A stretch of 64,000 nucleotides of DNA from an uncultured Bacteroidota bacterium (GTDB taxonomy: Bacteria > Bacteroidota > Bacteroidia > Flavobacteriales > Flavobacteriaceae): the NCBI GenBank assembly GCA_902514625.1, contig CABXRK010000003.1:264-64263 (forward strand), written 5' to 3'. Within the stretch, counting starts at the first letter, position 1, and each line of letters opens with the position of its first letter. The translations under genes and the position numbers were made by a program. Positions 1,684 to 19,943 of the stretch are shown one piece after another. The notes beneath the pieces were generated by a model. The model was not told the DNA's origin. It ran no database searches and worked only from the letters and a program-made list of their open reading frames with translations.

Positions 1684-1745
1684 AGGTATAAAAATTTAAG
1701 TGACCATAACTAATAACGTTTTTTTTTTTAAATATTGTATGAATT

Positions 1746-1787: not shown

Positions 1788-1813
1788 ATATAGAATTTAA
1801 ATTGATTTTTTAC

Positions 1814-3151
1814 TTATATAGGCAAAGAATAACCATTATGATAATCAGGAGAGATTAAATCATTGGCTTCCTTATCCTTTCCAAAAGTCTGATTTTCTTT
1901 ATCCCAATAAATTTTTCTACCTACTTTATATGAAATATTTCCCATATGAGCATTAATACAAGCAATACTTCCAGATTGAATTCCACAATTCAATGAATCA
2001 GGATCATTATTTCTAATTGCTTCAATAAAGTTTTTTGTATGAAAATCTAACCCACTAACTGTTGCCTTTTGATAAGGTACCTCATCTATCTTTGGCACTT
2101 TTTTATTCTGATAATCCAATTCCGGAACTACTTTCCAACCTCCTCTATCTATCACAACAGTACCATCATTTCCAACAAAAGCAATACCTTCATCCTGTCC
2201 ATAGTTTCCTCCATCAATTCCAACAGCATTTTCCCATAACATTGTCCAATTATCATATTGAAACAATGTTTGGAGTGTATCTGGAGTTTCACTATCCTGA
2301 TTTGGATATCCAAATCTCCCACCACTTGCAACAACAGAATAAGGTTCTTTAACTTTCATTCCAAATAAAGCAATATCAATTTCATGAACACCCCAATCAG
2401 TCATTAGACCTCCCGCATAATCCCAATACCATCTAAAATTAAAATGAAACCTGTTTTTATTAAAAGGTCTCATTGGAGCAGGACCCAACCAATTTTTGTA
2501 ATCCACTCCATCTGGAGCAGGAGAATCAGGAGCAGGATCATACATACCATACCATCCTTGATAAGCCCATACCTTAACTAATCTTATTTGTCCTAATTTT
2601 CCTGACCATAAATAATTAAGGGCATCCCTATAATGAGGAGAACTTCTTTGCCATTGACCAACTTGAATTAAATAATTACTATGTTTTTTTGCAGAATCGA
2701 GCATTATCATAGACTCTTTAATAGAGTTAGCAATAGGCTTTTCACAATAAACATGTTTTCCAGCTTCCAAGGCATGAACTAATATTAAACAATGCCAGTG
2801 ATCAGGTGTCCCTATAACCACTGCATCGATATTTTTATTATCTAATAATTTTCTATAATCTTTATATATTTTAGGCTTTTTTCCTGTGATTTTTTTAACA
2901 TCAGCGGATCTTTTTTCTAAAACACTATCATCAACGTCACATAAAGCAATACAATCCGTACCCTCATTTTTTAAAATTGATCTCATATCAGACCACCCCA
3001 TTCCTCGACATCCAATCACACCGAATTTAATTCTATCATTTGATCCAATAATTTTATTCATTGAATTAAATGGTTGATTAGCAAAAGACGATGAGAGAAT
3101 CCCTCCCGTAATTAATCCAGTATTTTTAATAAACTTTCTTCTTGATTTCAT
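1814..3151 (-). CDS. Gfo/Idh/MocA family oxidoreductase with twin-arginine (TAT) export signal
   Basis: 445 aa. The N-terminus MKSRRKFIKNTGLITGG fits the S/T-R-R-x-F-L-K TAT consensus. It has a Rossmann start (FGVIGCRGMGWS) and a CEKPIA (EKP) motif typical of the family. Confidence 0.85.
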   Translation of the reverse strand: MKSRRKFIKNTGLITGGILSSSFANQPFNSMNKIIGSNDRIKFGVIGCRGMGWSDMRSILKNEGTDCIALCDVDDSVLEKRSADVKKITGKKPKIYKDYRKLLDNKNIDAVVIGTPDHWHCLILVHALEAGKHVYCEKPIANSIKESMIMLDSAKKHSNYLIQVGQWQRSSPHYRDALNYLWSGKLGQIRLVKVWAYQGWYGMYDPAPDSPAPDGVDYKNWLGPAPMRPFNKNRFHFNFRWYWDYAGGLMTDWGVHEIDIALFGMKVKEPYSVVASGGRFGYPNQDSETPDTLQTLFQYDNWTMLWENAVGIDGGNYGQDEGIAFVGNDGTVVIDRGGWKVVPELDYQNKKVPKIDEVPYQKATVSGLDFHTKNFIEAIRNNDPDSLNCGIQSGSIACINAHMGNISYKVGRKIYWDKENQTFGKDKEANDLISPDYHNGYSLPI

Positions 3152-3180
3152 TTTATATAATTATTTAATTACTTGATATA

Positions 3181-4035
3181 TTAAAGCTTTCTCAGCCATA
3201 TATTTCTAAAAGAAACAGGATTTCCATGATCTTGAATATATATGGTTTTATTTAAACTCCTACTAGGCATATATTTAGAAACTTTATCTCTCCCCTTTTG
3301 AGGCTTCCCAATAAATTCAGTTGTTCCTAAAATCTTAACATTATTTTGAACTAGAACTCCATTATGAAAAACAGTTAAAGTTCCAGCTCTAATTTCTTCT
3401 CCTTTTTCATTATACTTTGGCTCCATAAAAACAATATCATATGTTTGCCATTCCCCTGGGGGTTTGCTTGAGTTAACTAAAGGGGGATGTTGTTTATATA
3501 TTGAAGCAGCTTGACCGTTAGAATATGTTCTATTATTATAACTGTCTAAAATTTGAACCTCAAAACGTCTTTGAAAAGTTATACCGCTATTACCTCTTCC
3601 TTGACCTTTTCCTTCCATTTTAGTTGGAGTTTTCCATTCCATATGAAATTGAACTGAACCAAATTCCTCCTTAGTTTCTATACCTCCATCGACTTTTACG
3701 GTCATTGAACCATCGTTATTAATAATCCAATCTGCATCTTTTCCAGTAGGCGAATTTTTCCATTTTGAAAGACTAGACCCATCAAAAAGAACAATTGCAT
3801 CACTTGGAGCTAAATTGCTAATTCCTGGAGTAACTATTTTTGGTTCTGGCTCCCATACTTCAGTGTCTTGAGGAGAAATCCCTCTATCTTCAGGGAAAGC
3901 AGTGTAATATGCTTCTAGCATTTGTTCCATAGTTGGACCATCATCTATTTTATTCTTCTTTTCCTGAGCAGTAATAATGGTTATTGACAATATGAAAAAA
4001 ATATACTTCATAATACTATTTTTTAAATTATTCAT
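3181..4035 (-). CDS. DUF1080 (3-keto-disaccharide hydrolase family) secreted protein, copy A
   Basis: 284 aa with a signal peptide. Family-like blocks are WEPEP, PSDAIVLFDG, GRGNSGI.FQRRFEVQILDSYNN, and IQDHGNPVSFRNIWLRKL at the C-terminus. Confidence 0.8.
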   Translation of the reverse strand: MNNLKNSIMKYIFFILSITIITAQEKKNKIDDGPTMEQMLEAYYTAFPEDRGISPQDTEVWEPEPKIVTPGISNLAPSDAIVLFDGSSLSKWKNSPTGKDADWIINNDGSMTVKVDGGIETKEEFGSVQFHMEWKTPTKMEGKGQGRGNSGITFQRRFEVQILDSYNNRTYSNGQAASIYKQHPPLVNSSKPPGEWQTYDIVFMEPKYNEKGEEIRAGTLTVFHNGVLVQNNVKILGTTEFIGKPQKGRDKVSKYMPSRSLNKTIYIQDHGNPVSFRNIWLRKL

Positions 4036-4036
4036 T

Positions 4037-4792
4037 TTAAAGTTTTCTCAGCCATATATTTCTAAAAGAAACAGGATTCCCATGATCTTGAATATATATA
4101 GTTTTTCTTGAATTATTACCAGGCATATATTTAGAAATCTGTTTTTCTCCTATAAGGGGCATTCCTATATACTCAGTAGTCCCTAAAATCTGAACGTTAT
4201 TTTGTACTAAAACTCCATTGTGAAAAACTGTAAAGCTTCCTCTTGTAATAGTTGTTCCAACTTCATTAAACTCAGGCTCTATAAATATAATATCATAAGA
4301 CTGCCATTCTCCTGGAGGTCTACTCGAATTAACTAAAGGAGCGTGTTGTTTATAAATTGATGCTGCCTGACCATTAGAGTATGTTCTATTATTATAACTA
4401 TCTAGAATTTGAACTTCAAAACGCCTTTGAAAAATTATTCCACTATTCCCTCTTCCTTGACCTTTCCCCTCCATTTTAGTAGGGGTTTTCCATTCAATAT
4501 GAAATTGAACTGATCCAAATTCTTCCTTTGTTTCTATCCCTCCATTTCTAGTTACAGTCATTGACCCTGACCTATCATTATTAAGAATCCAACTAGCATC
4601 TCCTCCACGTGCATTAACCCATTGAGACAAATCTTTGCCATCAAAAAGAACAATTGCATCACTTGGTGGTTGATTATTTTTGCCAGGGGTAACAATCACT
4701 GGTTCCGGTTCCCATACTTCAGTTAATTCAGGCTTAGGCTTTTCTTGAGAAAAAACAACATTAACTATAAAAAATAAAACTATATACCTCAT
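4037..4792 (-). CDS. DUF1080 (3-keto-disaccharide hydrolase family) secreted protein, copy B
   Basis: 251 aa with a signal peptide. It is a close paralog of copy A, with long identical peptide runs such as FQRRFEVQILDSYNNRTYSNGQAASIYKQH and IYIQDHGNPVSFRNIWLRKL. It is separated from copy A by 1 nt. Confidence 0.8.
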   Translation of the reverse strand: MRYIVLFFIVNVVFSQEKPKPELTEVWEPEPVIVTPGKNNQPPSDAIVLFDGKDLSQWVNARGGDASWILNNDRSGSMTVTRNGGIETKEEFGSVQFHIEWKTPTKMEGKGQGRGNSGIIFQRRFEVQILDSYNNRTYSNGQAASIYKQHAPLVNSSRPPGEWQSYDIIFIEPEFNEVGTTITRGSFTVFHNGVLVQNNVQILGTTEYIGMPLIGEKQISKYMPGNNSRKTIYIQDHGNPVSFRNIWLRKL

Positions 4793-4837
4793 AAAAATTA
4801 ATTTTAATTTAACATTTACCTAAATATAAGAGTTTTT

Positions 4838-7800
4838 TTATTTTTTAATTATATAGCTTCTATCATTATTTGAAAAAATTATTACTTTATCATTTTCTAA
4901 ATTTAGAATTTTTCTAGTATTCAATTTATTAGGAATAGTTAAATTTTTATATTTTTCATATTTAATTCCATCAAATCCTATAAATTTTCCTCCAGAATTT
5001 GAATCACTACTTCCTATTTCATTTACATAATTTAAATAATTACCAACAAAAAATAAAGTCTTTACATTATTTTTATTAGTTACCAAAATATCTTGAATAG
5101 GACTCCATTGAGCTTCTTTTGGTAATGGAATGGAGATAAATGTATCTTTCATATTCAGGAAAACCATTGACTTTAATTCATTTATTTTTTTTACATGAGT
5201 TAAAGAATCTCTGTGAATATCAAAAAGATCTTCATAGGATTTAATTTTAGAAAAAGAATTATAATCCGGAAATTTTTTCTTTAAAAATGGCATCTGATTT
5301 ACTAACTTATCCTTAGAAGCAAAAGGGACATAAGCATCAAAAAATGGGTAAAATATAACTGGATCAATCTGCCCATTACTATCAAAATCATGAAGAAAAA
5401 TTTCAATAGGTTTTTCTAATGATGCTTTAAACTTAATATTTAATCCAGCATTTCCAACTATTAAATCTTTTGTGCCATTTTGATCTATATCATCAATAGT
5501 AATACAATTCCACATCCCATATGAATTTGAAAGACCTAAAGGTAAAGTCATATTTGAAAATGATTCTTTTCCTTTATTGATTAATATAGTGACAGGCATC
5601 CAATCACCAACTATAACTAAATCTAATAAATTATCTTGATTTATGTCAACCCACTTAGCATCAGTTATCATTCCCAAACGAAATTTTTCTAAAACTCCAA
5701 AACCTCCATTTTTATTATTTAATAAAATAAAACTATAAGGAGAAAGTCCGTATGCTCCGGGAATTGATCTGGATCCTAAAAAAACATCGTCAAAGCCATC
5801 ATTGTTTAAATCCCCTACCGAGATAGCTCCACCATTATAGGCAGGCAATTTAACTGGATATGATGTAAAGTTTGCATTCCCATCATTAAGATAAATTCTA
5901 TCTGCTAATCTACGATCTCTCTCTAAAAATTCTGATCCCCCACTTACCACGTAAATATCTAAATCACCATCATTGTCAACATCAAGAGCTTCTGCATCAA
6001 CATCTTCATAAAAATTATCAAGATTAAATATTGGAATATCCTTCCTTTTAAATTTTCCTTTATTATTTGCCAAATAGAAATTAGCAGGTTCATAAGTTGC
6101 TCCACCTACATATAAATCTTTCAGATTATCTCCATTAAAATCTTGATAAACTACTGCTGGGCCTTCTCTTGACAGAAGCTCTGGAATAAGCAATTCTCTT
6201 TCATAATCGAAGGTATCGTTTTCTATATGTAAATCGAAGGTTTTAAAATTCTTTAATTTATTATTTAAATTAATTTTATTTATAATGCTTTCATTTTTAT
6301 TAATAAAATTTTTTTTATTTACTATAATATCAAAATAGGATTGCTTTAAGCCATCAGGCCATGTTACCTGAATAGAATCAATTCTATTTATATTACCTAG
6401 TCCAAAATTAAGGTTATATGAAGATGATGATTGAAATCCCTTGATCGGATTTAGCTGTTTTGTCCATTGTTCTCCTTTTGAAAATAGAGTTACCTTAGCT
6501 CCAATAGAAATATATTTGTTCCCATTATCTAATAATGAAATTTTAACATAATTATTTTCATTATTAACATTTGTAAGGTTTTCTAATAAATAAACATTTT
6601 CGTTAATATTGCTAACAACCAAATCTAAATCTCCATCATTATCAAGATCACTGTAGGCGGCTCCATTAGAATAGGAACTTTCCATCCCAAAATCATTTGT
6701 CTTTTTCTCAAAATTGAGATTTCCCTTATTTAAATATATAATATTTGGAATTTTAAGGGTAGGCATTTTATCAATCAACTTTTTATTTAAATTTTTTTGT
6801 TTAGATAGCTTGTAAGCTCTGTAGTCTACATTACTTGTATAATTAATATAATCTAAATCATTTGGCCTTTTATAAATACCATTAGTTATGAAAATATCAT
6901 TATAAGTATCATTATTTAAATCCTCTAAAAGAACAGACCAACTCCAATCTGTTGCATAAGTATCTGTATAAATAGCTATATCAGAAAATTTATTACTGCC
7001 TCTATTTAAATGAAAATTATTTCTAGCATACTGATCCTCATAACCAAAAGATTTTTTTATTTTATATACTTGATCTGTATCCTCACCTCCCGATTTCAAA
7101 AAAACTTCACGAAGATATGGCATCATGTCTAAAGTGAAAATATCAAATAATTGATCATTATTCATATCTGCAATATCAACTCCCATTGTAAATCGAGAGT
7201 TATGGCTTATGAATTCTTTGCTTTTTTCTATAAATGATTTATTTTTTTGATTAATGTATATATAATCATTTTCATGAAAATCATTTCCTATATATATATC
7301 TGTCCACCCATCATTATTGATATCAGCAGTAGTAATTGCCAAACCGTAACCTAAAGGGCTACTATATATTCCCGAAGAACCAGTTACATCAACAAACTTG
7401 CCTTCCTTTTCATTTATTCTATTTTCATAAAACCTATCGCCGCTTAAAGAGTCCTTTTCCTCTCTCTTACTAATATCTGTATAATTTCTTGGAGTATGAA
7501 TATTATGATTGAGCAAGTACATATCTAAATCACCATCATTATCATAGTCTAAAAATGCTACTTGAGTAGAAAAACCACTAAAATCAATACCTAAATCAAC
7601 AGAGGACTCGATAAAAGATCCATTTTTTTGATTTATATAAATAAGGTTATGGGCTTTTAAAGTTTTATAATTTCCAACTTTTGAAACATGAATATCTAAC
7701 CATCCATCTCCATTTACATCAGCCATTGCAACTCCAGTAGACCATGTTGATAAAGAATCTAAGCCTGAAGTTTTAGTAATATTTTTAAACTTAAGATTTC

Positions 7801-8098
7801 CTAAATTAATATATAATTGATCCTTTTTTTGATTTGCAGATAAATAAATATCATCTAAACCATCATTATTTATATCCCCAATAGCAACACCCCCTCCATT
7901 ATAAAAATAAAGATATTCTATGATATTTAATTCCTCAGAATACTCAAGTTTATTAGAAAAATCTAATCCAGAATAAGACGAATCTATTTTATTAAAAAAA
8001 TTACTGAAATTAACTTTTTCTTCTTTATTTTTTTCTGCACACCCTATAATTGAAATTATAAAAGTGAGAAGTATCAATTTTTTTTTGTTAAAATTCAT
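4838..8098 (-). CDS. FG-GAP/VCBS repeat + UnbV_ASPIC lipoprotein (CRTAC1-like), paralog 3
   Basis: 1086 aa with lipobox IISIIGC. There are seven DxDxDG-type FG-GAP blades (e.g. GDINNDGLDDIYL, ADVNGDGWLDIHV, LDYDNDGDLDMYL). These are followed by an UnbV_ASPIC-like block (IGAKVTLFSKGEQWTKQLNPIKGFQSSSS) and a second set of FG-GAP blades. Confidence 0.85.
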   Translation of the reverse strand: MNFNKKKLILLTFIISIIGCAEKNKEEKVNFSNFFNKIDSSYSGLDFSNKLEYSEELNIIEYLYFYNGGGVAIGDINNDGLDDIYLSANQKKDQLYINLGNLKFKNITKTSGLDSLSTWSTGVAMADVNGDGWLDIHVSKVGNYKTLKAHNLIYINQKNGSFIESSVDLGIDFSGFSTQVAFLDYDNDGDLDMYLLNHNIHTPRNYTDISKREEKDSLSGDRFYENRINEKEGKFVDVTGSSGIYSSPLGYGLAITTADINNDGWTDIYIGNDFHENDYIYINQKNKSFIEKSKEFISHNSRFTMGVDIADMNNDQLFDIFTLDMMPYLREVFLKSGGEDTDQVYKIKKSFGYEDQYARNNFHLNRGSNKFSDIAIYTDTYATDWSWSVLLEDLNNDTYNDIFITNGIYKRPNDLDYINYTSNVDYRAYKLSKQKNLNKKLIDKMPTLKIPNIIYLNKGNLNFEKKTNDFGMESSYSNGAAYSDLDNDGDLDLVVSNINENVYLLENLTNVNNENNYVKISLLDNGNKYISIGAKVTLFSKGEQWTKQLNPIKGFQSSSSYNLNFGLGNINRIDSIQVTWPDGLKQSYFDIIVNKKNFINKNESIINKINLNNKLKNFKTFDLHIENDTFDYERELLIPELLSREGPAVVYQDFNGDNLKDLYVGGATYEPANFYLANNKGKFKRKDIPIFNLDNFYEDVDAEALDVDNDGDLDIYVVSGGSEFLERDRRLADRIYLNDGNANFTSYPVKLPAYNGGAISVGDLNNDGFDDVFLGSRSIPGAYGLSPYSFILLNNKNGGFGVLEKFRLGMITDAKWVDINQDNLLDLVIVGDWMPVTILINKGKESFSNMTLPLGLSNSYGMWNCITIDDIDQNGTKDLIVGNAGLNIKFKASLEKPIEIFLHDFDSNGQIDPVIFYPFFDAYVPFASKDKLVNQMPFLKKKFPDYNSFSKIKSYEDLFDIHRDSLTHVKKINELKSMVFLNMKDTFISIPLPKEAQWSPIQDILVTNKNNVKTLFFVGNYLNYVNEIGSSDSNSGGKFIGFDGIKYEKYKNLTIPNKLNTRKILNLENDKVIIFSNNDRSYIIKK

Positions 8099-11000
8099 AA
8101 ATAATAATTTGATTATTATTTCTTGAAAAAATTAAAAGATTGTCATTTGAAATTATTTTCCTTATTTCTCCCTTTATTGAAATTCCTTTGCCGTCAGAAT
8201 GGTATTTAAAATTTGCATCTCCATTGTTTTCAAGATAAGCTCCATAGGAGGAATCATACCTTCCTACCTCAGGTTTAACTCCAAATAAATTTCCACCCAA
8301 GACTAAATCTAAATCCCCATCGTTATCATAATCATTTGCGCTTATTCCATGAACTGGAGAAAATTGAATTTCTTCTGGCAAATCAATAGATGTGAAATTC
8401 ATTTCTCCATTATTAATGAATAAAGAAGTCTTAAGTTCGAATACTTGAGGAATAAAACTCTCTTTTATTTGCTCTTTTGAAAAAATATCTTTTATGTCTG
8501 CATCCTTGAATGATTCATAATTAGGGAATTTCTTTTTCAAAACTTTAATCTGATTAATTAGATCATGTCTTAAAGAAAATGGATAATCTTTTTTATTTTC
8601 TGCTCTAAAAGTAAGAATTGGATCAAGTGATCCATTTTTGTCATAATCATTAATAAAGAGACTAATTGGATTGTCAAAACTAGCCTTAAACCTCGAATTT
8701 GTTCCATGATTCCCCGCTACTATATCTTCAAGACCGTCATCATTAAAATCACCAGTAATTAAAACATTCCACCATCCTTTTAATTTTGAAAGATTATTAT
8801 TTTTAATCTTTTTTAAAATCCCTTTATTATTTTTGAAAATTTCTATACCCATAAATTCCCCAACTACTATTAATTCCTCATATCCATCATTATCTAAATC
8901 TTTAAAAATAGCATCGGTAATCATACCCATATCTATCCCATCAGTTAAATAAGCGCTTGTTACATCTTTAAAATTTCCTTTCCCATCATTCAAAAAAATA
9001 AATCCAGACCCAGGAGTTCCATACTTAAACGGATGTAATCTTTGACCAACAAAAATATCTATATCCCCATCAGAATCTATATCTGAAATTGCTACTGCTC
9101 CTGTACTAAAATTCATTTTGGAAAAATCAGAATCTCCTTCGGAAATAATAAAATTTCCTTTTCCATCGTTAATATAGAGCCTATCCTTATAATCTTTAGA
9201 ATTAGGACCAAATTCAATTCCCCCACTACCAACGTATAAATCAAGGTCCCCATCATTATCTGAATCAAAAAACACACTTTCAGAATCTTCAGAAAACTTG
9301 TTTTTTTCAAAAAAACCATTATCTATTCTCTCACCAGATAAAAGATTATAAATTCCAGCAGAAAGACCTTTAGAGCCTCCTAAAAAAATTTCTTTTTTAC
9401 CATCCATATTAATATCTCCTATTGACATTGTCGGCCCCTCTGTACTACACATGTGATACATTAATCTATTTCTATGAAAATCAACAAATACATTTTCTTT
9501 ATGTGTTATAGGAAATTTTTGTTTCTTTTCTCTAAATAATTTTGATTCTTTACTTATGTTTTTTTGGAAATTCTCAATTGCGTTTTTTTCTTCTATAATT
9601 ATAATTTGATTAGGCTCCACATTATCTAATCTTGTTATCTTTAATGAAGGCCATAGGACTTCTATAGAAACTGGGCTATTATCGGGTAATCCAAAATTTG
9701 GACGTAAATCCATACTGGACTGAAATCCACGAGCAGGTTGTTGCTCTAAATAGTAATTTTTATTATTAGATTTTACATTTATTTGTGCGCCTATTGCATT
9801 AATATTTTCATTCAATCCTTTTAAGACTATCTTTAGATAGTTATTTTTTTTAAGCTCCTCTGATTTGTTTTTATAAACAAATGCTTTCATATTAACGTTA
9901 TTAACTACTAGATCCAGATCTCCATCATTATCTAAATCTCCATAAGCTGCTCCGTTAGAAAAACTTGGTGTTTCAATTCCTGAATTTGAAAATCTTTCAA
10001 ATTCTAATTTACCTTTATTTAAATAAGCATGATTTTTTACTTTGTTGGAAGGAATGATATCAACTAATCTCTTATAATCAACCTTATTATTAGAAACCAC
10101 TGACTTAACTACTTCTTCATTAGAAATATATTGAAGATAATCCTGATTAGTTAAATCTTTATATATCCCATTTGCTATAAATAGATCTTTTAATCCATCA
10201 TTATCCATATCAAAAAATAAAGCTCCCCAACTCCAATCTGAAGCTTCTACTCCACTATACCTTCCAATCTCACTAAATGTATTATTCTTATTGTTTAATT
10301 GCAATACATTTCTTGTGAATTGATGATAATATCCATTTTTAACATTATACTGATACTTATTCCAATCTTCAAAAGTTGTTACAGTTTTTAATCTCTGATA
10401 TTCTGATGGTAACATTTCTGTAACAAATAAATCATTATATCCATCATTATCAATATCTGCAGCATCCGCACCCATTGATGCTCCACTAATTGATTGAATT
10501 TGATCAGTTAATTTTTCAATAAATTTTCCATTTTGTTGATTTATATATAAATAATCTCTTTCAAAAAAATCATTAGACACAAAAATATCTTCCCATCCAT
10601 CTTTATTAAAATCTCCAACAGTGACACCAAGTCCAAATCCTATAACACTACCATAAATTCCAGCTTTTTTACTTACATCATAAAATTTGCCCCCTCTATT
10701 TTCTAACAATTTATCTCCTCCAAGAATATCTCTATTAGGTCTTTCATTCTTTTTCAAATTAAATGATCCTATTGATTGATAAGAGTTGTTAAGAAGATAT
10801 ACATCTAAATCTCCATCTTTATCATAATCAAAAAATGATGAATGTGTAGAAAATCCTAGATCATCCAAATTATATTCACTTGCCCTTTCTTCAAACGTGC
10901 CATCACCATTATTTATAAATAATTCATTTTGTTTATTATCTCCCTTAATATCTCCAGAATTACAAACATATATATCAAGAAATCCATCAGCATTAATATC

Positions 11001-11366: not shown

Positions 11367-11940
11367 TTAAATTTTCAACATCAACAATAACTTTCATGTT
11401 ATCCATAAAATAAGCTTTAAATTGTCTGTTTCCATCAACCTTAACATATATATCAGAAACATCTTTTTTAATTTTATCTCCTTTAATCACAATAAAATCA
11501 TTTCCTGGGTACCATTTTTTTATACTATCTAAAACCTTAAGGATTAATTTATTAGAATAAAGTTCAATATTCCATGTAGCCCATCCGGGATGAGAAAACA
11601 TAAATTTTAATTTATTTAATCTGTTTTTTTTATTAAACCCAGGAAAGAAATCCATAGCAATTTCTGAATTTTTATCCTTTAACATATATCTTAAAGTTCC
11701 ATATTCTCCAATAGCAGGAAAAACGATTCCCTTTTTATTTAATTCCCATATTTTATCAAAATAATCTTCTTTTCTTTCTCCTAGCTTAATGTTAAATATA
11801 AGTGAATCAAATTTCACATCTTTATTTAATTCTCTTTTTACTAATTTATGATATTCAGAAGTATTACAACTCCAATAAAATAAAAGTCCAATGAAAATTA
11901 ATATTAATTTATTTAATTTTTTTAAATTTAACTTCTTCAT
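11356..11940 (-). CDS. hypothetical lipoprotein (no recognisable domain)
   Basis: 194 aa. The N-terminus is a signal plus lipobox (LLFYWSC). The ATG at 11938..11940 lies 32 nt inside the end of paralog 1. The stop overlaps the annotated start of paralog 2 by 11 nt. Confidence 0.6.
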   Translation of the reverse strand: MKKLNLKKLNKLILIFIGLLFYWSCNTSEYHKLVKRELNKDVKFDSLIFNIKLGERKEDYFDKIWELNKKGIVFPAIGEYGTLRYMLKDKNSEIAMDFFPGFNKKNRLNKLKFMFSHPGWATWNIELYSNKLILKVLDSIKKWYPGNDFIVIKGDKIKKDVSDIYVKVDGNRQFKAYFMDNMKVIVDVENLNDK

Positions 11941-14900
11941 TATTTACCGTAAAAATTAATATTTTATTAGCTTCAAAATTAAAAAAATCTAAATTACGAA
12001 TTTGACCATCAATTTCTGTTGAATTAACATTTTCTAATTGATATTTATCATCCTTTAAACTTCCATAAATTAATAATCCATTTGATGCATCATTTCTTCC
12101 AAATTGTGGTTTAACATTATACTGATTCCCTCCCAAAACAATATCATTAATATTGTCATTATTTAAATCCAATATCTTAATTGCATATATAGAAGAATAT
12201 TGAGCTTGAATTGGTAATTGATGATGAATGAATTTCCCATTTTTATTTTCTAGCCACAAAGATGCCAATTGATCTATTTCATATACTAATGAATTCTTTA
12301 ATTGAGAGGAATCAAAAATATCCTCTATTGAAGCTGAAGCATATTGATCAAATCTAACAAATTTTTTCTTCAAATATGGCAACTGAGAAATAAGTTCGTC
12401 TCTATCAACAATAGGATAAAATTTATCGTTGATTTTATGACAAAAAATTTGTTCTATTGTTCCATTTTTATCAAAATCATTAATATAAACTCTATCTCCT
12501 TTTTTGAAATAGGTATTTAATCCTAAGTTCCCAGCAACTATATCAATATCTCCATCTTTGTCAATATCTTTTAATTCAATATCATTCCATAAACCTACAG
12601 TTTTATTAAGATCATATTTTTCTGTATGATCATTAAAAACCCCATTTTCATTTATAAATACTTTTATCCCCATCCAGTGTCCTATAATAATAATGTCCTC
12701 CCAACTATCATTATTTATATCTACGGCTTGAACATCTGTTACCATTCCAATATTCGAAAAAACCTCCTTTTGATTAACTTTAAATTTAGATTCTTTAGAA
12801 TTATACAATAAATAACCATTTCCTGGCAACCCATAGTTATTACCCTTCATTCGCTGACCAACAAAAACATCTATAAATCCATCTTTATTAAAATCAGCAG
12901 AGGTTATTGACGAACTAATAAAATTAAAATTGGTTGGTAAGAGACTATTATCTAAAGTAAAATTTCCCTTTCCGTCATTAATATATATTCTATCTTTTAA
13001 TGACTTGTCATTTTCTGAGAAAGCTCTACCTCCACTACAGACATATAAATCTTGGTCATTGTCTTGATCAATATCTAAAAAAATTGCGTCCGTATCTTCT
13101 GAATAAATACTTTCTTTAAGAAAGGTAGAATCTTTCAAATATTTATCTTTAAAAGACACAAAAAGTGCTCCAGTTTGGAATTTAGCACCACCAATAAAAA
13201 AATCTTTGACTCCATCTCCATTAACATCAGCAGAACTTAAGGCAGGACCTTCATTACTATACATTTCAGGAATTAAACGATCTCTATTAAAATCAATAAA
13301 TTTATTCTCTATATGTTTGTATTTAAAAGGATCTTTTTTTAGATCCAATACTATTTTTTCTTCATTCTTTTTTTTGGAAACAGCAACTTTATTTATCTCA
13401 GGTTCTATAACCTTATAAGTTTTATTAGATTTTAAATTTTTTATCTTAGAAATTGAGCCATTTGGCCAATTAAAAATCACTGAATCTATTTTATTATTTT
13501 TTCCAATTCCAATATTAATTGGTGCGGCAATTGAACTTTGGAATCCTTTAGAGATATGATTGTCAAAAACAACTTTTTTTGTTCCAAAATAGGCATAAGC
13601 TTTAGTTCCTATAGCCTGAGAATTTAATGATTTAGAAGACAATTTAATTTTTACACTTTTATTTATTAACGAATCTGTTTTGTTCTCATAGATAAAAAAT
13701 GGCATATTCACATTATTAATAACTAAATCTTGATCTCCATCATTATCAAAATCAGCATAAGCACTTCCATTGCTAAAAGTATCATGATCTAATCCCCATT
13801 CAATAGATTTAAATTTAAAATTAAAATCACCTTCATTTTTATAAATGTGATTCATGACAGGTTTTGAAGGCATTATGTCAATCAATTCCTTTATAAAAAA
13901 ATTCTTATCCTTCAAAATGTTTTTCATATTATAATCATTAGCATAATAAGTTAGATAATCCCTATCTAAAAGATCCTTATAAATCCCATTAGAAATAAAA
14001 ATATCTTTATAACCATCATTATCAGCATCAAAAAACAAACAGGCCCAACTCCATTCAGTACTTGAAATACCAGACATTCTACCAAGTTCGAAAAACCCCG
14101 ATGAACCCATATTTCTTTGTAAGGCATTTCTAGGGTATTGATGAAAATACCCTTGAGAATTGGCAAAAACATATTTATCCCATGACTCAAATACAGTTTT
14201 AGTTCTTTTCCTCTGAATTGTACTTGGAAGCATTTCCGTTACAAATAAGTCAGGCAACAGATCATTATCTAGATCTCCAGCATCAGCTCCCATAGATCCC
14301 ATAGAAATAGATTTGAATTTTTCTTCCAATTCTTCTTTAAAAGTTCCATCTTGGTTGTTTGTGTATAAATAATCTCTTTCAAAAAAATCATTTGAAATAA
14401 AAATATCATCCCAATTATCTCCATTAAAATCAGCTATAGTTATTCCAAGGCCAAATCCAATTGAAGAGGTATATATTCCCACTTCTTCAGATTTATCTAT
14501 AAAAATGCCATTTTCATTTACCAAAAATTTATTACCATCCTCGCTAGGAATTAAACGCTGATTTTCAATTAAATCAAAACCACCTACTGATCTAATAGAA
14601 TTACTTAAAAGATAACAATCTAAATCACCATCTTTATCATAATCAAAAAATGAAGCATGAACCGATAAACCATTAAAATCTAATCCAAATTCTTTGGAGC
14701 TTTCAGTAAACGTTAAATCACCATTATTTATAAATAATTCATTATGTCTTTTTTTGCCACCTGGTTTGCCGGATTTACAGACATATATGTCAAGAAAACC
14801 ATCCCCATTAATATCAACAATAACAGAACCTGTTGACCATACATTTTCACATGCTACTCCAGCAAAATCAGTTATATCTTGAAATTTAAAATTTCCTTTA

Positions 14901-15157
14901 TTCAAGTATAATTTATTTGGAACCATGTTACCAGTAATATAAAGATCTACCAGTCCATCATTATTAATATCTCCAACAGAAACACCTGCACCGTTATAAA
15001 AATTGCGATAAGTATAAGGATTAAAATCGTTGGTATAATTTAAATTATTTTCAAACTCAATTCCACTATCTTCTCTAAGTTCAAAAAGAGTGGGAGTTTC
15101 TCTATTACAAGAAATAAATAAAACTATTAGAATAAAAAAGAATCTATTATTTTTCAT
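11909..15157 (-). CDS. FG-GAP/VCBS repeat + UnbV_ASPIC lipoprotein (CRTAC1-like), paralog 1
   Basis: 1082 aa with lipobox LFISC. Blades include GDINNDGLVDLYI, VDINGDGFLDIYV, FDYDKDGDLDCYL, ADFNGDNWDDIFI and ADFDNDGDQDLVI. An UnbV_ASPIC-like block (IGTKAYAYFGTKKVVFDNHISKGFQSS) follows, then a second propeller (ADVNGDGVKDFFI ... LDLNNDNINDIVL). Confidence 0.85.
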   Translation of the reverse strand: MKNNRFFFILIVLFISCNRETPTLFELREDSGIEFENNLNYTNDFNPYTYRNFYNGAGVSVGDINNDGLVDLYITGNMVPNKLYLNKGNFKFQDITDFAGVACENVWSTGSVIVDINGDGFLDIYVCKSGKPGGKKRHNELFINNGDLTFTESSKEFGLDFNGLSVHASFFDYDKDGDLDCYLLSNSIRSVGGFDLIENQRLIPSEDGNKFLVNENGIFIDKSEEVGIYTSSIGFGLGITIADFNGDNWDDIFISNDFFERDYLYTNNQDGTFKEELEEKFKSISMGSMGADAGDLDNDLLPDLFVTEMLPSTIQRKRTKTVFESWDKYVFANSQGYFHQYPRNALQRNMGSSGFFELGRMSGISSTEWSWACLFFDADNDGYKDIFISNGIYKDLLDRDYLTYYANDYNMKNILKDKNFFIKELIDIMPSKPVMNHIYKNEGDFNFKFKSIEWGLDHDTFSNGSAYADFDNDGDQDLVINNVNMPFFIYENKTDSLINKSVKIKLSSKSLNSQAIGTKAYAYFGTKKVVFDNHISKGFQSSIAAPINIGIGKNNKIDSVIFNWPNGSISKIKNLKSNKTYKVIEPEINKVAVSKKKNEEKIVLDLKKDPFKYKHIENKFIDFNRDRLIPEMYSNEGPALSSADVNGDGVKDFFIGGAKFQTGALFVSFKDKYLKDSTFLKESIYSEDTDAIFLDIDQDNDQDLYVCSGGRAFSENDKSLKDRIYINDGKGNFTLDNSLLPTNFNFISSSITSADFNKDGFIDVFVGQRMKGNNYGLPGNGYLLYNSKESKFKVNQKEVFSNIGMVTDVQAVDINNDSWEDIIIIGHWMGIKVFINENGVFNDHTEKYDLNKTVGLWNDIELKDIDKDGDIDIVAGNLGLNTYFKKGDRVYINDFDKNGTIEQIFCHKINDKFYPIVDRDELISQLPYLKKKFVRFDQYASASIEDIFDSSQLKNSLVYEIDQLASLWLENKNGKFIHHQLPIQAQYSSIYAIKILDLNNDNINDIVLGGNQYNVKPQFGRNDASNGLLIYGSLKDDKYQLENVNSTEIDGQIRNLDFFNFEANKILIFTVNNEEVKFKKIK

Positions 15158-15170
15158 AATACCAGAACAA

Positions 15171-15178
15171 CAAATTTA
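15171..15178 (-). promoter_or_regulatory. candidate Bacteroidota -7 promoter box (TAAATTTG on minus strand) for the propeller-gene operon
   Basis: Plus-strand CAAATTTA is the reverse complement of TAnnTTTG. It sits 13 nt upstream of the ATG at 15157 and immediately after the susD terminator. This motif is common by chance in AT-rich DNA. Confidence 0.35.
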
Positions 15179-15182
15179 ATAA

Positions 15183-15216
15183 AAAAAGGGTTGTTCTGTT
15201 AGGAACAACCCTTTTT
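15183..15216 (-). terminator. intrinsic terminator downstream of susD
   Basis: On the minus strand the sequence reads AAAAAGGGTTGTTC-CTAACA-GAACAACCCTTTTTTT. This is a GC-containing stem with a 6-nt loop and a T7 tract, about 20 nt after the susD stop. Confidence 0.7.
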
Positions 15217-15236
15217 ACCATTATTAAAAGATATTC

Positions 15237-16967
15237 TTAGTATCCAGGATTTTGGGTTAAAGAACCATTAGCAGCTTGAATTTGAGATAACGGAATTGGA
15301 AATAAATTCTTGTTGTCATCTCCAACAGATCCACCTTTAGCACCGGTTTTCTCCCACCATGCTTCAGTGAATTTACCCCATCGAACTAAATTTGTTCTCC
15401 TATGAGACTCAAATATAAATTCTTTACCACTCTCATCAGCAAACTTTGCAGCGTCTAAAGTTGCTAAATTAGCAACCCCAGCACGAGATCTAACAGCATT
15501 CACATCAGCTAAACCTAGACTCCAATCTCCTGCAGCCATAGATCTTCCTTCAGCTCTATTGAAATACATTTCAGCTAAACGAATAATTGGCATATCATTA
15601 TCCATATCATTCTGCTGAAATTGCTTATAGCTGAATTTATACATTCTAGCTCCAGTTTGTCTCCAAGAGTCAGGTTCTAATTCATTTACATAAGGTGTAT
15701 AAACTAGATCCGGTTTACCGAAATCAGATGCAGGCCATCCACTTGCAGCAACAGCATCATCAGCCTTATCGTCATATGCCCAGTCAACTAACTGCTTTCC
15801 AGCAGAACTTTTCTGAGATCCAGTTAAGAACCATCCTAAACGCTTATCTCCAGCCTCATACTTTTTATACATATCTTCCATAGTTTGATAACCATTCCAT
15901 GGTTGAGAAGCCAAATTAAAAGTATTCTGACTTGGCTGGTGAAGACTCATCTGAGCAAAAGGCATTCCACCTTTACCAGTAGCTTGATCATAATCAATAG
16001 AGAAGATGATCTCAGGATTATCTTGATTATTTGGAGCTCCTATTGTAAGTACTCCGGAAAGCGTTGCAGGATCATTCAAACCACTTGAATCAGGACGAGC
16101 AGCTAAGTTAGCAACCGAATATGAATCATCAACAAGCACATATGGCCCATTAGTGATAACCCAATCAGCAGCATTTGCAGCTTCAGTCCATCTAGCAGTT
16201 CCATCAGTTCCTGCAGTATTTGCAGAAGTCCAAACTTTAGCATTTAAATATAATCTTGATAAAATACCCATTGCAGCGTATTGATTAATACGATATTTTT
16301 GGGGATTAGTATTTAAATCACTTCCTGACAAATCAATAGAACCAGATAAAACAGCAGCAGCAGTAGTACCTAAAGCAGCTAATATTTCACTTTCAGCAAA
16401 TTCAAAAACTTGTTTTCTAGTTGATTGAGCAGGATCCTGTCCAGCAGCAGTAACAATTTTTACTCCACCATACAAATCCGCTAATCTCATATAGAACAAT
16501 GCTCTTAAAACTCTAAGTTGCGCTGTTTCATTTGCAGTAATAGATCCAGCTAAAACGTTATTAATTTCATTAATTGCGTTATACTGACCACTCCACATGC
16601 CTGAATTTGGTCCGTGAGCTGAACTAACAGTATGTCTATGAGTAACTACCCATATTCCACCATCATACCAGTCACCACCTTTAACTCCAACAAGCATTTC
16701 ATCGGTTGATACTGATTGCATAGACCAATATGATCCGTGACCACCACTACCAGAACTTCTTAGTGTTCCAAAGGCACCACCAAGATTGTCACTCGCTCTC
16801 TGTGCACTTCCATCTGTAGCGCCAGAAGAATATTGAGCTCCACCACCACCACCAGCAGCGGCAACATAAGGCTTAGTAAGGTCACTTATTAGTTCTTCTT
16901 CTAAATCACAAGCAGTAAAAGCTACTAGTGATAAAGTCATTAACGTTATTTTTATATAATTTTTCAT
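15237..16967 (-). CDS. susD: SusD/RagB family nutrient-binding outer membrane lipoprotein
   Basis: 576 aa. The lipobox LVAFTAC is followed by an acidic DLEEE stretch (like a surface-export signal) and a Gly-rich linker. The body is SusD-like. It lies 12 nt downstream of the SusC-type gene. Confidence 0.9.
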   Translation of the reverse strand: MKNYIKITLMTLSLVAFTACDLEEELISDLTKPYVAAAGGGGGAQYSSGATDGSAQRASDNLGGAFGTLRSSGSGGHGSYWSMQSVSTDEMLVGVKGGDWYDGGIWVVTHRHTVSSAHGPNSGMWSGQYNAINEINNVLAGSITANETAQLRVLRALFYMRLADLYGGVKIVTAAGQDPAQSTRKQVFEFAESEILAALGTTAAAVLSGSIDLSGSDLNTNPQKYRINQYAAMGILSRLYLNAKVWTSANTAGTDGTARWTEAANAADWVITNGPYVLVDDSYSVANLAARPDSSGLNDPATLSGVLTIGAPNNQDNPEIIFSIDYDQATGKGGMPFAQMSLHQPSQNTFNLASQPWNGYQTMEDMYKKYEAGDKRLGWFLTGSQKSSAGKQLVDWAYDDKADDAVAASGWPASDFGKPDLVYTPYVNELEPDSWRQTGARMYKFSYKQFQQNDMDNDMPIIRLAEMYFNRAEGRSMAAGDWSLGLADVNAVRSRAGVANLATLDAAKFADESGKEFIFESHRRTNLVRWGKFTEAWWEKTGAKGGSVGDDNKNLFPIPLSQIQAANGSLTQNPGY

Positions 16968-16979
16968 AATAAATTTATA

Positions 16980-19943
16980 TTAAAAGTTTATGTTTAATCC
17001 AACTGTGATTGTTCTTGAATCGAAGTAATTACTTCTTCGATCAATACCAGGAGCTAAAACATTTCCTCCTCCAATTACAGTTCCTGCAGTAATTGCCTCT
17101 CCACCATCAACAATTGAAGGAGTTGGATCTGCACCAGTATAGTCGGTAATCACAAATGCATTTCTAACATTTAGAGAAACTTGAGAAGATGAAATTCCAG
17201 AAATTGGAAGATCAAGATCATAAGCAACAGTTAAATTAGCTAATTTAATATAATCAGCCTTTTCAACATATAAACTACTAAATGCAGCAGCTTTAAGATC
17301 GTCGTCTGCATATTTTGTATTTACAAAATTATAAGCAAACTGACTACCAATTCTTGGCTCAAAAAATGCTCTCCAAGTGTTTATCAAGCTATGTCCAAAT
17401 GCTCCTTGAAAAAATGCATTAATCTGAAATTTTCCAAATGTAATATTATTGTTAAATCCTATTTCCAAGTCAGGAATACCTTGCCCAACACCTGTGAAAT
17501 CTCCTTCTGGATCAAGAGCTTTATCTTGACCAGCGACGATTTTACCATCTCCGTTAAGATCTTTAAACTTCGGTTTTCCAGTTGCAGTATCAGGACCATC
17601 ATAAACAGGAGCCCAAATTGTTCCAATTCTATAGCCTTCTTTAACTAATAACATATCTGTAGCATTTTGACCAGGAGAACCTAAATTACCAGTAGTAATT
17701 CCATCTTTAGTAGTATACTTATCTAAAATAGATTCATTAGTTCCTAAATTAATACTTGGAGTCCAAATATCATTTACCTTATAAGTTAAATTTAATTCAA
17801 TACCTGAACTAGTAAGATCACCTGCATTTTCATATCTTCTGTTAAACCCATATAGAGCAGCGTCCACTTCAGTTTCTGAAATAAAGTCAGTAATTTTTCT
17901 TGAATAAACATCCAAAGTAGCATCAAGTGGTCCATTTCTATACTCGATCCCAAAATTAGTTTCTGCCTTTTCCTCCCATTTAAGGTCAGGGTTAGCAGCT
18001 CTCGCTTGAGTTGTTGCTTTGTTAGCAGCTGAATAGCTGTATACAAGTTGAGACAATCCACTTGCAGCAGGAAGCGCCCCAGTTACACCATAACCAACTC
18101 TAACTTTAAATTTATCAAAACTTGTGCCAAGGTATTTATTTAAATCAACACCTATACCACCCCCAGGGAATACACCCCATTGTTGTTCAGTACCTAGTTT
18201 ATTAGATCCTTCACGTCTTACAGTAGCATTAATAAAAATAGCATTGTCTAAAGTAAGATTCACTCTTCCAAAACCAGCAATAGTTTTATTAGTAGGACCT
18301 TTATAACTTCCTAATCCAATAGTACCGGCTGCCAAAAGATCTTCAGAAGCACCTATAAGATAAGAATAATCAATCGCTTCATCTGGGAAATCTCCAACAG
18401 CAATATTTTTAGTAAAGTAATCAGATTCCTGATAAGAATAACCCGCGGTTAAAACAAGATTGGCATTTCCAAGATCTGCATTATAAATACCATAAATTTC
18501 ATATGATGAACTTTCATTCTCAAAATCATCAAAACTTACACGACCTGGTCTATCACCAAGGTTAGCCTGAGTATAATAATCATTAACTGATCTTGAAGTT
18601 CTACTCTCGACACTTGATCTATTACTTGCTAAATTAGCAAATACAGTTAAATTTTCACCTAGCGCGTAGTCAAGAGCTATATTATAAGAAAATTCATTTC
18701 TGTCTGCAGCATAAATTCCTTGTTCTTGAATAGCTACAGGGTTAAAACTTCTAAATAACCCTAGAGTTTGAAAATATCCACCTGATCTAGTGATTTGCTC
18801 ATCAGTAAAATAATTTTGAATATCCGCCGGAGCATCCTTGAAATATACAGGAGCAGTAGGGTTAAAAATATTAGCAAATTCTAAAACACCAGGATTTCCT
18901 AGATCTGAAGTTCTTCTAGTATAAGATGTATTCAAATTAATCGTTAACTTATCATTGAAAGCTTTAGTTTGTAATGTTGCACGTGTGTTAAACTGCTTAA
19001 ATCCAGTTTTTTTAACTACACCGTCAACATCACGAGCATTTAAAGCAACTCGGAAACTAGTCTTATCAAATCCACCTGAAGCTGAAATATTATGAATTTG
19101 CGAGATTCCTTGTCTAGTAACCTGGTCAACCCAATTGTTAGAAGCTCCTAGATCGGCACCACCAAAAGCTCTAAACTCAGCAGCAGTCATCATCTTTATC
19201 GCATTCATCTTTTCAGATACAGCATATTGACCTGTATAGTTAAATTTAACTTTTCCAGGTGTTCCTTTCTTAGTAGTAACAATTATCACACCACTAGACC
19301 CTCTTGAGCCATAAATAGCTGCAGCAGATCCATCTTTAAGTACGTTAATTGTTTCTATATCACTAGGATCAACATTATCAATCGAAGCGCCAGGCACTCC
19401 ATCGATTACAAATAAAGGAGAAATATTTGCCCCAATAGTACTAATACCTCTAAGTCTAATAGTAGATCCAGCATTTGGATTACCACCCTTACTGTAAATA
19501 CTTAGACCAGCTACTTTACCCTCAAGTAAACCAGCAGTATTAGAAATCGGTCCCTTATTAAATTCTTCTGCAGTAATCTTAGTTACAGCAGAAGTGATTT
19601 CTTTCTCTTTTTGAGAACCATATCCAGTAACTACAATTTCCTCCAGTTGACTATCAGAAACTAATGAAACGCTTAAGGAATCATTATCTCCTACACTAAC
19701 CTCTTGAGACAAAAACCCAACAAAAGAAATAACTAGCACATCAGATGAACTGGCCTCTATTGTAAAATTTCCATCAAAATCAGCCGTGGTCCCACTATCA
19801 GTCCCTTTGACTATAATGGTGGCTCCCGGTAACGGGCCATCCTCTCCAGAAACAGTTCCGCTAATTGTTTGAGCAACAAGAGTTGATCCAAACATAACAA
19901 AAACTGCTAAAAGTAGAGTCTTGATTTTCATTAAATTTTTCAT
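16980..19943 (-). CDS. susC: SusC/RagA family TonB-dependent outer membrane transporter
   Basis: 987 aa with a signal peptide. It has a CarboxypepD_reg-like domain (ISGTVSGEDGPLPGATIIVKG), plug motifs (VVTGYGSQKEKE, NVLKDGSAAAIYGSRGSSGVIIVTTKKG), and a beta-barrel ending in GLNINF. There is no N-terminal STN signalling extension. Confidence 0.9.
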   Translation of the reverse strand: MKNLMKIKTLLLAVFVMFGSTLVAQTISGTVSGEDGPLPGATIIVKGTDSGTTADFDGNFTIEASSSDVLVISFVGFLSQEVSVGDNDSLSVSLVSDSQLEEIVVTGYGSQKEKEITSAVTKITAEEFNKGPISNTAGLLEGKVAGLSIYSKGGNPNAGSTIRLRGISTIGANISPLFVIDGVPGASIDNVDPSDIETINVLKDGSAAAIYGSRGSSGVIIVTTKKGTPGKVKFNYTGQYAVSEKMNAIKMMTAAEFRAFGGADLGASNNWVDQVTRQGISQIHNISASGGFDKTSFRVALNARDVDGVVKKTGFKQFNTRATLQTKAFNDKLTINLNTSYTRRTSDLGNPGVLEFANIFNPTAPVYFKDAPADIQNYFTDEQITRSGGYFQTLGLFRSFNPVAIQEQGIYAADRNEFSYNIALDYALGENLTVFANLASNRSSVESRTSRSVNDYYTQANLGDRPGRVSFDDFENESSSYEIYGIYNADLGNANLVLTAGYSYQESDYFTKNIAVGDFPDEAIDYSYLIGASEDLLAAGTIGLGSYKGPTNKTIAGFGRVNLTLDNAIFINATVRREGSNKLGTEQQWGVFPGGGIGVDLNKYLGTSFDKFKVRVGYGVTGALPAASGLSQLVYSYSAANKATTQARAANPDLKWEEKAETNFGIEYRNGPLDATLDVYSRKITDFISETEVDAALYGFNRRYENAGDLTSSGIELNLTYKVNDIWTPSINLGTNESILDKYTTKDGITTGNLGSPGQNATDMLLVKEGYRIGTIWAPVYDGPDTATGKPKFKDLNGDGKIVAGQDKALDPEGDFTGVGQGIPDLEIGFNNNITFGKFQINAFFQGAFGHSLINTWRAFFEPRIGSQFAYNFVNTKYADDDLKAAAFSSLYVEKADYIKLANLTVAYDLDLPISGISSSQVSLNVRNAFVITDYTGADPTPSIVDGGEAITAGTVIGGGNVLAPGIDRRSNYFDSRTITVGLNINF

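Follow-up and report, generated by a model that had tools for sequence, protein, structure and literature searches.

A nine-gene operon on the minus strand of a 64,000-nucleotide stretch of DNA from an uncultured Bacteroidota bacterium of the family Flavobacteriaceae (assembly GCA_902514625.1, contig CABXRK010000003.1, positions 264 to 64,263; this whole stretch is hereafter called the window) was subjected to computational analysis of its protein families, predicted structures and genomic context in relatives. The first six genes encode a SusC/SusD transporter pair (SusCD), three large propeller lipoproteins (Prop1, Prop2 and Prop3) and a small lipoprotein (Orph), and form an old, widespread and conserved Bacteroidota uptake cassette, uncharacterised but clearly of the polysaccharide utilisation locus (PUL) type. 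The last three genes, encoding two DUF1080 proteins and a Gfo/Idh/MocA oxidoreductase (Gfo), are referred to as the oxidative tail. The operon is tentatively read as a lineage-specific version of this cassette, tied to alpha-glucosides, in which the oxidative tail replaces glycosidases; our confidence in this reading falls slightly short of even.

The nine open reading frames (ORFs) run head to tail from 19943 to 1814, with two hairpins among them:
16980..19943, minus strand: SusC-type TonB-dependent transporter, 987 aa, with signal peptide and CarboxypepD_reg, Plug and barrel domains
15237..16967, minus strand: SusD lipoprotein, 576 aa, PF07980 at 88 bits (cutoff 23)
15183..15216, minus strand: hairpin in the susD-Prop1 gap, with a T-run after it, -24.5 kcal/mol, z -5.4, 0 of 200 shuffles as stable
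11909..15157, minus strand: Prop1, lipoprotein of 1082 aa, FG-GAP propeller, UnbV_ASPIC and FG-GAP propeller, CRTAC1-like (Pfam)
11356..11940, minus strand: Orph, lipoprotein of 194 aa, between Prop1 and Prop2
8088..11366, minus strand: Prop2, lipoprotein of 1092 aa, architecture of Prop1, with 14 DxDxDG calcium-type motifs
4838..8098, minus strand: Prop3, lipoprotein of 1086 aa, architecture of Prop1 (Pfam)
4037..4792, minus strand: DUF1080a (PF06439), 251 aa, with Sec signal peptide, PF06439 at 135 bits over the full length
3181..4035, minus strand: DUF1080b, 284 aa, tandem paralogue, extended at the N-terminus by ~35 aa
1814..3151, minus strand: Gfo/Idh/MocA oxidoreductase exported by twin-arginine translocation (TAT), 445 aa, with the twin-arginine signal SRRKFIK
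1745..1788, minus strand: operon-closing terminator hairpin with a 14-bp GC-rich stem, z -5.5

The intergenic spacers from susC to the Gfo gene were 12, 79, -32, -11, -11, 45, 1 and 29 nt. A preliminary description of the window, made from its sequence, had reported these nine genes with the same coordinates, spacers of -32 to +79 nt and two hairpins, all of which were reproduced from the ORF list and by folding. Its domain assignments (SusC without an STN domain, SusD, three propeller lipoproteins, an orphan, two DUF1080 proteins and Gfo) agreed with Pfam and NCBIfam. It had also recognised no classical glycoside hydrolase (GH), polysaccharide lyase (PL), carbohydrate esterase (CE), sulfatase or peptidase in the operon, and none was found by Pfam, NCBIfam, PDB sequence search or Foldseek.

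Conservation of the cassette was assessed with a Prop2 scan at one genome per species, which returned at least 588 relatives, and the best 80 loci (numbered with the prefix L) were examined. The gene order of the core, SusC-SusD-Prop1-Orph-Prop2-Prop3, was seen again in at least five families, among them Flavobacteriaceae, Saprospiraceae, Cyclobacteriaceae and Roseivirgaceae, and SusC orthologues 45-54% identical to that of the window lead the same cassette in other families. Every core position forms an orthologue group of its own, the Prop3 group being distinct and present in most loci. Prop1 directly follows SusD in 65 of the 80 loci, the order Prop-Orph-Prop is found in 67/80 and the full set in 50/80; the Mucilaginibacter cassette is reduced to two propellers and has no Orph. 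SusCD is absent from 17 of the 80 loci, 10 of which end at a contig edge, leaving 70 assessable loci, and in 63 of these it lies beside the propeller genes. Because this order is recurrent (63/80 loci for SusCD with propellers, 67/80 for Prop-Orph-Prop), the propeller genes and SusCD are coupled beyond accident. Four loci (L040, L045, L060 and L061) carry Prop-Orph-Prop with no adjacent SusCD despite available upstream sequence, Prop3 being present as well in L040 and L061; therefore the module can exist apart from the transporter genes. The concern raised with the preliminary description, that the genes downstream of SusCD might adjoin it by chance, was removed for the propellers (63/70 loci) and was borne out in part for the DUF1080 and Gfo genes, which are kept with the cassette in L001 and L086 only.

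SusC scored 578 bits against TIGR04056 (cutoff 368), no STN domain was detected in it by Pfam or NCBIfam, and with 12 nt between the two genes susC and susD make up the adjacent pair by which PULs are defined. The closest solved homologue of SusD is the starch SusD 3CK7, matching the C-terminal 120 aa only. An acidic motif resembling a surface-export signal (C-DLEEE) follows its lipobox cysteine and is present in 60 of 64 orthologues. Compared with orthologues, the SusD of this clade has four insertions (residues ~40-48, 248-255, 405-420 and 545-550), which add ~40 aa and include a Gly-rich stretch close to the N-terminus.

For the partner genes of the core in other lineages, unlabelled neighbours were clustered and representatives were annotated. 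A GH37 trehalase (11 loci) is accompanied by a sucrose-symporter-like MFS transporter and a second MFS transporter. GH65 is present in 10 loci (1088 bits against a kojibiose hydrolase equivalog cutoff of 800) and matches FjGH65A (7FE3). The Mucilaginibacter locus also has a MalA-like GH31 and SusR. Altogether GH37 or GH65 occurs in 18 loci from Flavobacteriaceae, Saprospiraceae, Cyclobacteriaceae and Mucilaginibacter, at least four families. GH37 and GH65 are rare in genomes, so their recurrence, with loci counted without phylogenetic correction, is far above chance adjacency. SSF transporters were also found among the partners, a divergent LacI regulator in 33 loci and SusR in 3. The genes xylA and xylB with an SSF transporter were considered as part of the system and set aside, as they occur in only one related Flavobacteriaceae group and are probably a neighbouring xylose unit. 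In the searchable literature nothing specific on GH37 and SusD was found. From the alpha-glucoside partners we infer that the substrate of the cassette is a small alpha-glucoside or alpha-gluco-oligosaccharide.

The most common partner is of another kind. A PAP2-superfamily lipoprotein of ~447 aa, usually directly after Prop3, occurs in 45/80 loci (e.g. L008:16531-17868 and L085:21402-22754) and is an orthologue of the vanadium iodoperoxidase of Zobellia galactanivorans (4CIT, E 7e-212). Besides LacI and the full core, the Zobellia locus L085 carries the iodoperoxidase, an SSF transporter and a GMC oxidoreductase plus its small subunit. In two loci the GMC oxidoreductase and its Gluconate_2-dh3-type small subunit abut Prop3:
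L085:16589-18896: GMC oxidoreductase and small subunit (Zobellia)
L017:10061-12358: GMC oxidoreductase and small subunit (Pricia)
The small subunit starts with MKRREALK, possibly a TAT signal, and the pair represents another periplasmic sugar-oxidising module beside the core, unrelated to Gfo. No paper in the searchable literature mentions an operon context of the iodoperoxidase with this cassette. Seen across genomes, the core is linked with alpha-glucoside enzymes and with vanadium iodoperoxidase, neither of which is visible from the window alone.

In the pelagic Flavobacteriaceae clade to which the window belongs the partners seen elsewhere are absent, and the operon ends instead with two DUF1080 genes and Gfo. 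The window has a G+C content of ~28%, and proteins identical or nearly identical to its own were found in a Flavobacteriaceae metagenome-assembled genome as well as in Tara Oceans assemblies. That it carries no regulator, as had been described, holds for the window, where no homologue of the LacI gene of the relatives was found either; the absence is lineage-specific and, given the divergent LacI (33 loci) or SusR of relatives, a secondary loss.

DUF1080a and DUF1080b are 67% identical, and both match PF06439 over the full length at 134-135 bits; the current Pfam name of this former DUF is 3-keto-disaccharide hydrolase. Against PDB, DUF1080a matched the uncharacterised protein 4QHZ (E 1.4e-65), and the BT2157-type chains 3OSD and 8RR2 only at E ~0.008, with the motifs GNSGI, EVQILD and QDHG..V.FRNI aligning between them. 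Gfo scored 171 bits against the NCBIfam family BT_2158_fam (equivalog cutoff 750), aligning over the N-terminal 278 aa only, and its best PDB matches, 8TDF and 8TDH (E ~1e-34), cover only the N-terminal 240 aa.

PF06439 and a TAT-exported Gfo/Idh/MocA enzyme are the heart of BT2156-2160, the main trehalose route of Bacteroides thetaiotaomicron (PMC8121099). In this pathway the Gfo enzyme oxidises C3 using a tightly bound cofactor, and DUF1080 is both a 3-keto-alpha-glucoside 1,2-lyase and a glucal hydratase (bioRxiv 10.1101/2024.03.25.586180). The cofactor is recycled when Gfo reduces the 3-keto-glucose product, and a TIM-barrel protein is a beta-specific lyase required only for beta-anomers (bioRxiv 10.1101/2024.03.25.586180). 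Gfo and DUF1080 were sufficient in vitro for alpha-glucoside cleavage, the other components being dispensable for alpha-anomers (bioRxiv 10.1101/2024.03.25.586180). The nine ORFs and the scanned flanking ORFs contained no TIM-barrel 3-keto-beta-glucoside lyase, second cytosolic dehydrogenase or DUF6377 regulator. The window holds dehydrogenase and DUF1080 only, which is the minimal alpha-glucoside set of the published pathway. On sequence grounds DUF1080a is a candidate periplasmic 3-keto-alpha-glucoside 1,2-lyase/hydratase and Gfo a candidate glycoside 3-dehydrogenase. Because both are distant from the characterised proteins, although the family motifs align, the claim is limited to pathway likeness: the tail would, by analogy, work like the 3-keto-glycoside pathway, and its proteins are not claimed to be equivalent to the characterised ones. 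Oxidation-driven cleavage, which the preliminary description had put forward as a new logic, is the chemistry of the published BT2156-2160 pathway (PMC8121099; bioRxiv 10.1101/2024.03.25.586180), and the oxidative tail would represent already known chemistry.

Under the favoured reading, lectin-like propellers and Orph, acting as accessory lipoproteins of SusCD, would capture a small alpha-glucoside or alpha-gluco-oligosaccharide of the trehalose or kojibiose type, which SusCD would import. In the periplasm Gfo, with tightly bound nicotinamide adenine dinucleotide, would oxidise C3, and DUF1080 would eliminate the alpha-linked aglycone and hydrate the resulting glucal to 3-keto-glucose. Gfo would then reduce the 3-keto-glucose and so recycle its own cofactor. 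The tail would in this way be a non-orthologous replacement, in a streamlined clade, for the GH37, GH65 or GH31 of other lineages.

The strongest competitor, which we consider unlikely though deserving of serious weight, holds that DUF1080-DUF1080-Gfo is an independent periplasmic sugar-oxidation unit that was brought behind the propellers as a streamlined genome lost genes and became compact, with substrates unrelated to the cargo of SusCD. DUF1080 then Gfo after Prop3 was found only in L001 (Prop2 76% and Gfo 81% identical) and in L086, a Tara contig (Gfo 81%), each with a single DUF1080. The Gfo orthologue group is very well conserved, at ~60% identity across Spirosoma, Runella, Salegentibacter and Saprospiraceae, and appears there in other settings, as a DUF1080-Gfo pair lacking neighbouring propeller genes in Salegentibacter and as a solitary gene in Runella. 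In pelagic Flavobacteriia, orthologues of 62-67% identity lie amid housekeeping genes with no DUF1080 nearby and overlap sodB, which suggests a constitutive role for Gfo in those organisms:
L081:9001-10344: Gfo orthologue overlapping the sodB 3' end by 4 nt
L087:8001-9344: Gfo orthologue overlapping the sodB 3' end by 4 nt
L088:8001-9368: Gfo orthologue overlapping the sodB 3' end by 4 nt
Because orthologues occur alone or paired away from propellers, the Gfo/DUF1080 module is an independent unit, and because their contexts elsewhere differ from that in the window, the tail is a lineage-specific addition. It was earlier taken as an integral part of the system, a view not supported here, as close relatives alone have these genes behind Prop3. 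The flanks of ~9 of 81 core loci contained Gfo, DUF1080 or GMC genes, which is near a rough, uncomputed background estimate from copy number, and sugar-oxidising modules as a general partner of the core were rejected as unproven.

Against a tail with unrelated substrates stand the layout and history of the operon. The genes are co-oriented, the 45-nt gap between Prop3 and DUF1080a showed no structure on folding, and the sole terminator downstream of this gap is the shared one after Gfo. The arrangement was kept through the divergence from L001 and L086, and DUF1080 was duplicated within it. The module sits in the slot held elsewhere by alpha-glucoside genes, and its chemistry suits alpha-glucosides. 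In the Saprospiraceae locus L033 a Gfo orthologue (54%) also abuts Prop3, on the opposite strand.

The propellers were examined for catalytic relatives. Each Prop protein has 9-10 FG-GAP_3 repeats (PF13517) and an UnbV_ASPIC domain (PF07593) at residues ~515-595, with DxDxDG motifs flanking the latter on either side. Prop1 and Prop2 are 44% identical, and Prop3 is 38% identical to both. The AlphaFold2 model of Prop2, built from 66 sequences, reached a mean predicted local distance difference test (pLDDT) value of 82 and a predicted template modelling score of 0.81, and shows a beta-sandwich between two propellers. Searched against PDB with Foldseek, it matched murine CRTAC1 (9ETN, E 5.6e-27, template modelling score 0.73 over the target) with its N-terminal half; other matches were generic double-propeller scaffolds of the DDB1/CPSF160 type with poor superposition, and the top 50 for the whole-protein model held no GH or PL entry. 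PDB sequence search with the propellers returned only CRTAC1 (9ETN, E 1.7e-14) and integrin. Membership of the CRTAC1/ASPIC-UnbV group was found in all three proteins by domain content (PF13517 and PF07593) and, for the Prop2 model, by a CRTAC1-like fold. As known carbohydrate-active enzymes (CAZymes) the propellers were accordingly rejected, as Pfam, NCBIfam, PDB sequence search and AlphaFold2 with Foldseek gave CRTAC1, integrin and scaffolds only. The structural check proposed earlier thus placed them in no characterised GH or PL family, and the earlier remark that such proteins have no assigned role still applies.

Lipobox cysteines are present in SusD, Prop1-3 and Orph and are conserved in the orthologues of Prop1-3 and Orph. 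Acidic residues at positions +1 to +5 number mostly 0-1 in Prop1, Prop2 and Orph, 1-2 in Prop3 and 2-3 in SusD. Because the propellers and Orph have this motif in a weak to moderate form, they are only putatively exposed at the surface. VCBS/FG-GAP propellers are reported to include lectins, e.g. tachylectin (PMC8023676), and by analogy the Prop proteins may act as lectin-like capture or accessory lipoproteins. Residues invariant outside the calcium motifs across the three paralogues and 63 orthologues are W378-S-W380, Y338, Y346, Q349, R352, N353, H622, E624, D629 and R776. The Prop2 segments 328-350, 628-638 and 1027-1039 are near-invariant across paralogues and orthologues, yet were modelled with pLDDT <50, and are candidate interaction surfaces or mobile lids.

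Orph had no match in Pfam or NCBIfam, and its homologues fall into 105 clusters, none of them named. Its AlphaFold2 model (pLDDT 88) has an alpha/beta fold, for which Foldseek found no PDB neighbour at E<=1e-3. Weak PDB sequence matches to designed pentatricopeptide repeat proteins were rejected, being best explained by composition, and an exact-sequence lookup in the contig index gave no match.

It is improbable that Prop1-3, perhaps with Orph, are instead a new enzyme family of surface endo-acting glycanases or lyases replacing the missing CAZyme. Several lyase and hydrolase families are built on beta-propellers, an obvious endo-acting surface enzyme is missing from all loci of this kind, and the many invariant residues outside the calcium motifs would suit catalysis. 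The structural and sequence searches described above, however, gave CRTAC1 and scaffold propellers with no similarity to any characterised catalytic propeller, three paralogues in fixed order suit a structural complex better than three catalysts, and poor modelling of several invariant segments is often seen at binding interfaces.

A last explanation, that the cassette serves halogen or oxidative chemistry (uptake of iodine or of oxidised or halogenated organics) with the iodoperoxidase as its key and the sugar genes supplying reductant or peroxide, could draw on that lipoprotein being the commonest partner, on the GMC oxidoreductases beside Prop3 in Zobellia and Pricia, on the richness of the propellers in calcium-binding motifs and on an Arenibacter strain in which iodine uptake depends on glucose, oxygen and calcium and was attributed to an oxidase together with a haloperoxidase (PMC5064120). 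We regard it as very improbable, since the window and its close relatives keep the whole core without iodoperoxidase, and LacI/SusR control and the rare alpha-glucoside-specific enzymes point to sugar catabolism. To our knowledge there is also no precedent for SusCD transport of halogen species.

The alpha-glucoside reading has to be weighed against several points. The core genes are experimentally uncharacterised throughout, and the window has no alpha-glucosidase, regulator or inner-membrane sugar transporter. Gfo and DUF1080 lie far from BT2158 and BT2157, their characterised counterparts (171 vs 750 bits; E ~0.008), and Gfo orthologues of 58-67% identity stand alone or are paired with DUF1080 away from propeller genes. 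The association with alpha-glucoside enzymes is partly inherited within clades, so that independent events are fewer than the loci counted. The iodoperoxidase, the commonest partner, is not accounted for by an alpha-glucoside model. Prop1, Prop2 and Orph show a weak acidic surface-export motif, and 4-5 loci retain propeller genes with no SusCD adjacent to them.

Transcriptional signals and the immediate surroundings of the operon were also recorded. The stem-loop at 15183..15216 is probably a partial terminator or attenuator. Pattern search and annotation gave the following features:
20105..20112, minus strand: Bacteroidota-type -7 motif TAGATTTG, 163 nt upstream of the susC start
15171-15178, minus strand: Bacteroidota -7-like motif TAAATTTG, between the susD hairpin and Prop1, 14 nt 5' of the ATG
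2-853, plus strand: C-terminal part of a GH29 alpha-L-fucosidase, frame open to the window edge, where the gene is cut
862-1683, minus strand: 273-aa protein with ~4 hydrophobic segments by eye, directly past the operon terminator
23447-27343, minus strand: reprolysin-like metalloprotease, 1298 aa, with a type IX secretion C-terminal domain
57959-63892, minus strand: SprA, type IX secretion translocon, in the same window as the metalloprotease with the type IX secretion domain

TAGATTTG at 20105..20112 could be the susC promoter, and TAAATTTG may be an internal promoter ahead of Prop1. Both assignments are weak because neither motif class exceeds chance: the -7 motif was not enriched across the window (111 observed vs 117 expected), and a sigma-70 scan of the window was uninformative (114 sites vs 116 expected). 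The GH29 gene lies ~1 kb past the 3' end of the operon, convergent with it and outside it, and is the sole classical CAZyme near the locus. The 273-aa protein had no match in Pfam or NCBIfam; a homologue is found at the same place in L001, and L086 has a 250-aa unannotated gene there. Upstream the operon is neighboured by tRNA-Leu and the housekeeping gene prs, and the remainder of the window consists of housekeeping genes.

SusCD is the main route of glycan uptake for Bacteroidota in oceans, soils and guts, and SusCD loci that have no CAZymes usually go unannotated. The cassette described here is a strictly conserved six-gene core in at least 588 scanned species-representative genomes of several families, built from protein families with no known bacterial function. 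A bolder proposal, to which we give only a small share of belief, is that Prop1-3 and Orph are an unrecognised class of SusCD-associated machinery, spread over those at least 588 genomes, that does what SusE/F binders and classical CAZymes do not: either a calcium-dependent multi-propeller complex for capture or processing of small alpha-glucosides, or a new family of catalysts that cooperates with redox enzymes of the periplasm (iodoperoxidase, GMC, or Gfo with DUF1080). Trehalose and kojibiose-type alpha-glucosides emerge from the comparative context as substrates that can be tested, and Zobellia, Winogradskyella and Maribacter as models that can be cultivated. The window possibly presents a natural case of the 3-keto oxidative pathway replacing glycosidases in a streamlined pelagic bacterium, and the physiological role of the well-studied Zobellia iodoperoxidase may be explained by its operon context with this cassette.

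Among known systems, vertebrate CRTAC1 is an extracellular-matrix protein for which we know of no enzymatic role. Murine CRTAC1 (9ETN) has the N-terminal FG-GAP propeller and the ASPIC/UnbV domain in common with the Prop proteins. Unlike it, these are lipoproteins with a second, C-terminal propeller, have no EGF-like domain that could be detected and occur as three fixed paralogues beside SusCD. No paper in the searchable literature joins SusD with ASPIC, UnbV, FG-GAP, VCBS or CRTAC1. With BT2156-2160 (AL1-AL5) the operon shares a TAT-exported Gfo/Idh/MocA enzyme paired with secreted DUF1080 proteins in which the motifs are kept. It differs in having no TIM-barrel beta-lyase, second cytosolic dehydrogenase or DUF6377 regulator, in that its Gfo and DUF1080 belong to distant subfamilies, and in its two DUF1080 copies, which are joined to a SusCD operon. 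Orthologues of the Zobellia galactanivorans iodoperoxidase Zg-vIPO1 (4CIT/4USZ) are the commonest downstream partner of the core, including in the Zobellia genome, whereas no such gene is found anywhere in this window.

The canonical PULs, represented by Sus of Bacteroides thetaiotaomicron and FjDexUL of Flavobacterium johnsoniae, resemble the operon in that a SusC/SusD pair heads lipoproteins and periplasmic enzymes and a stem-loop follows susD. Its relatives share with them SusR or LacI control, GH31 and GH65, the last being an equivalog of FjGH65A (PMC10316084). In contrast to these systems the operon has no regulator in this lineage, no SusE/F-type binders and no GH, PL or CE, and three CRTAC1-like double propellers of ~1,085 aa together with a small lipoprotein fill that place.

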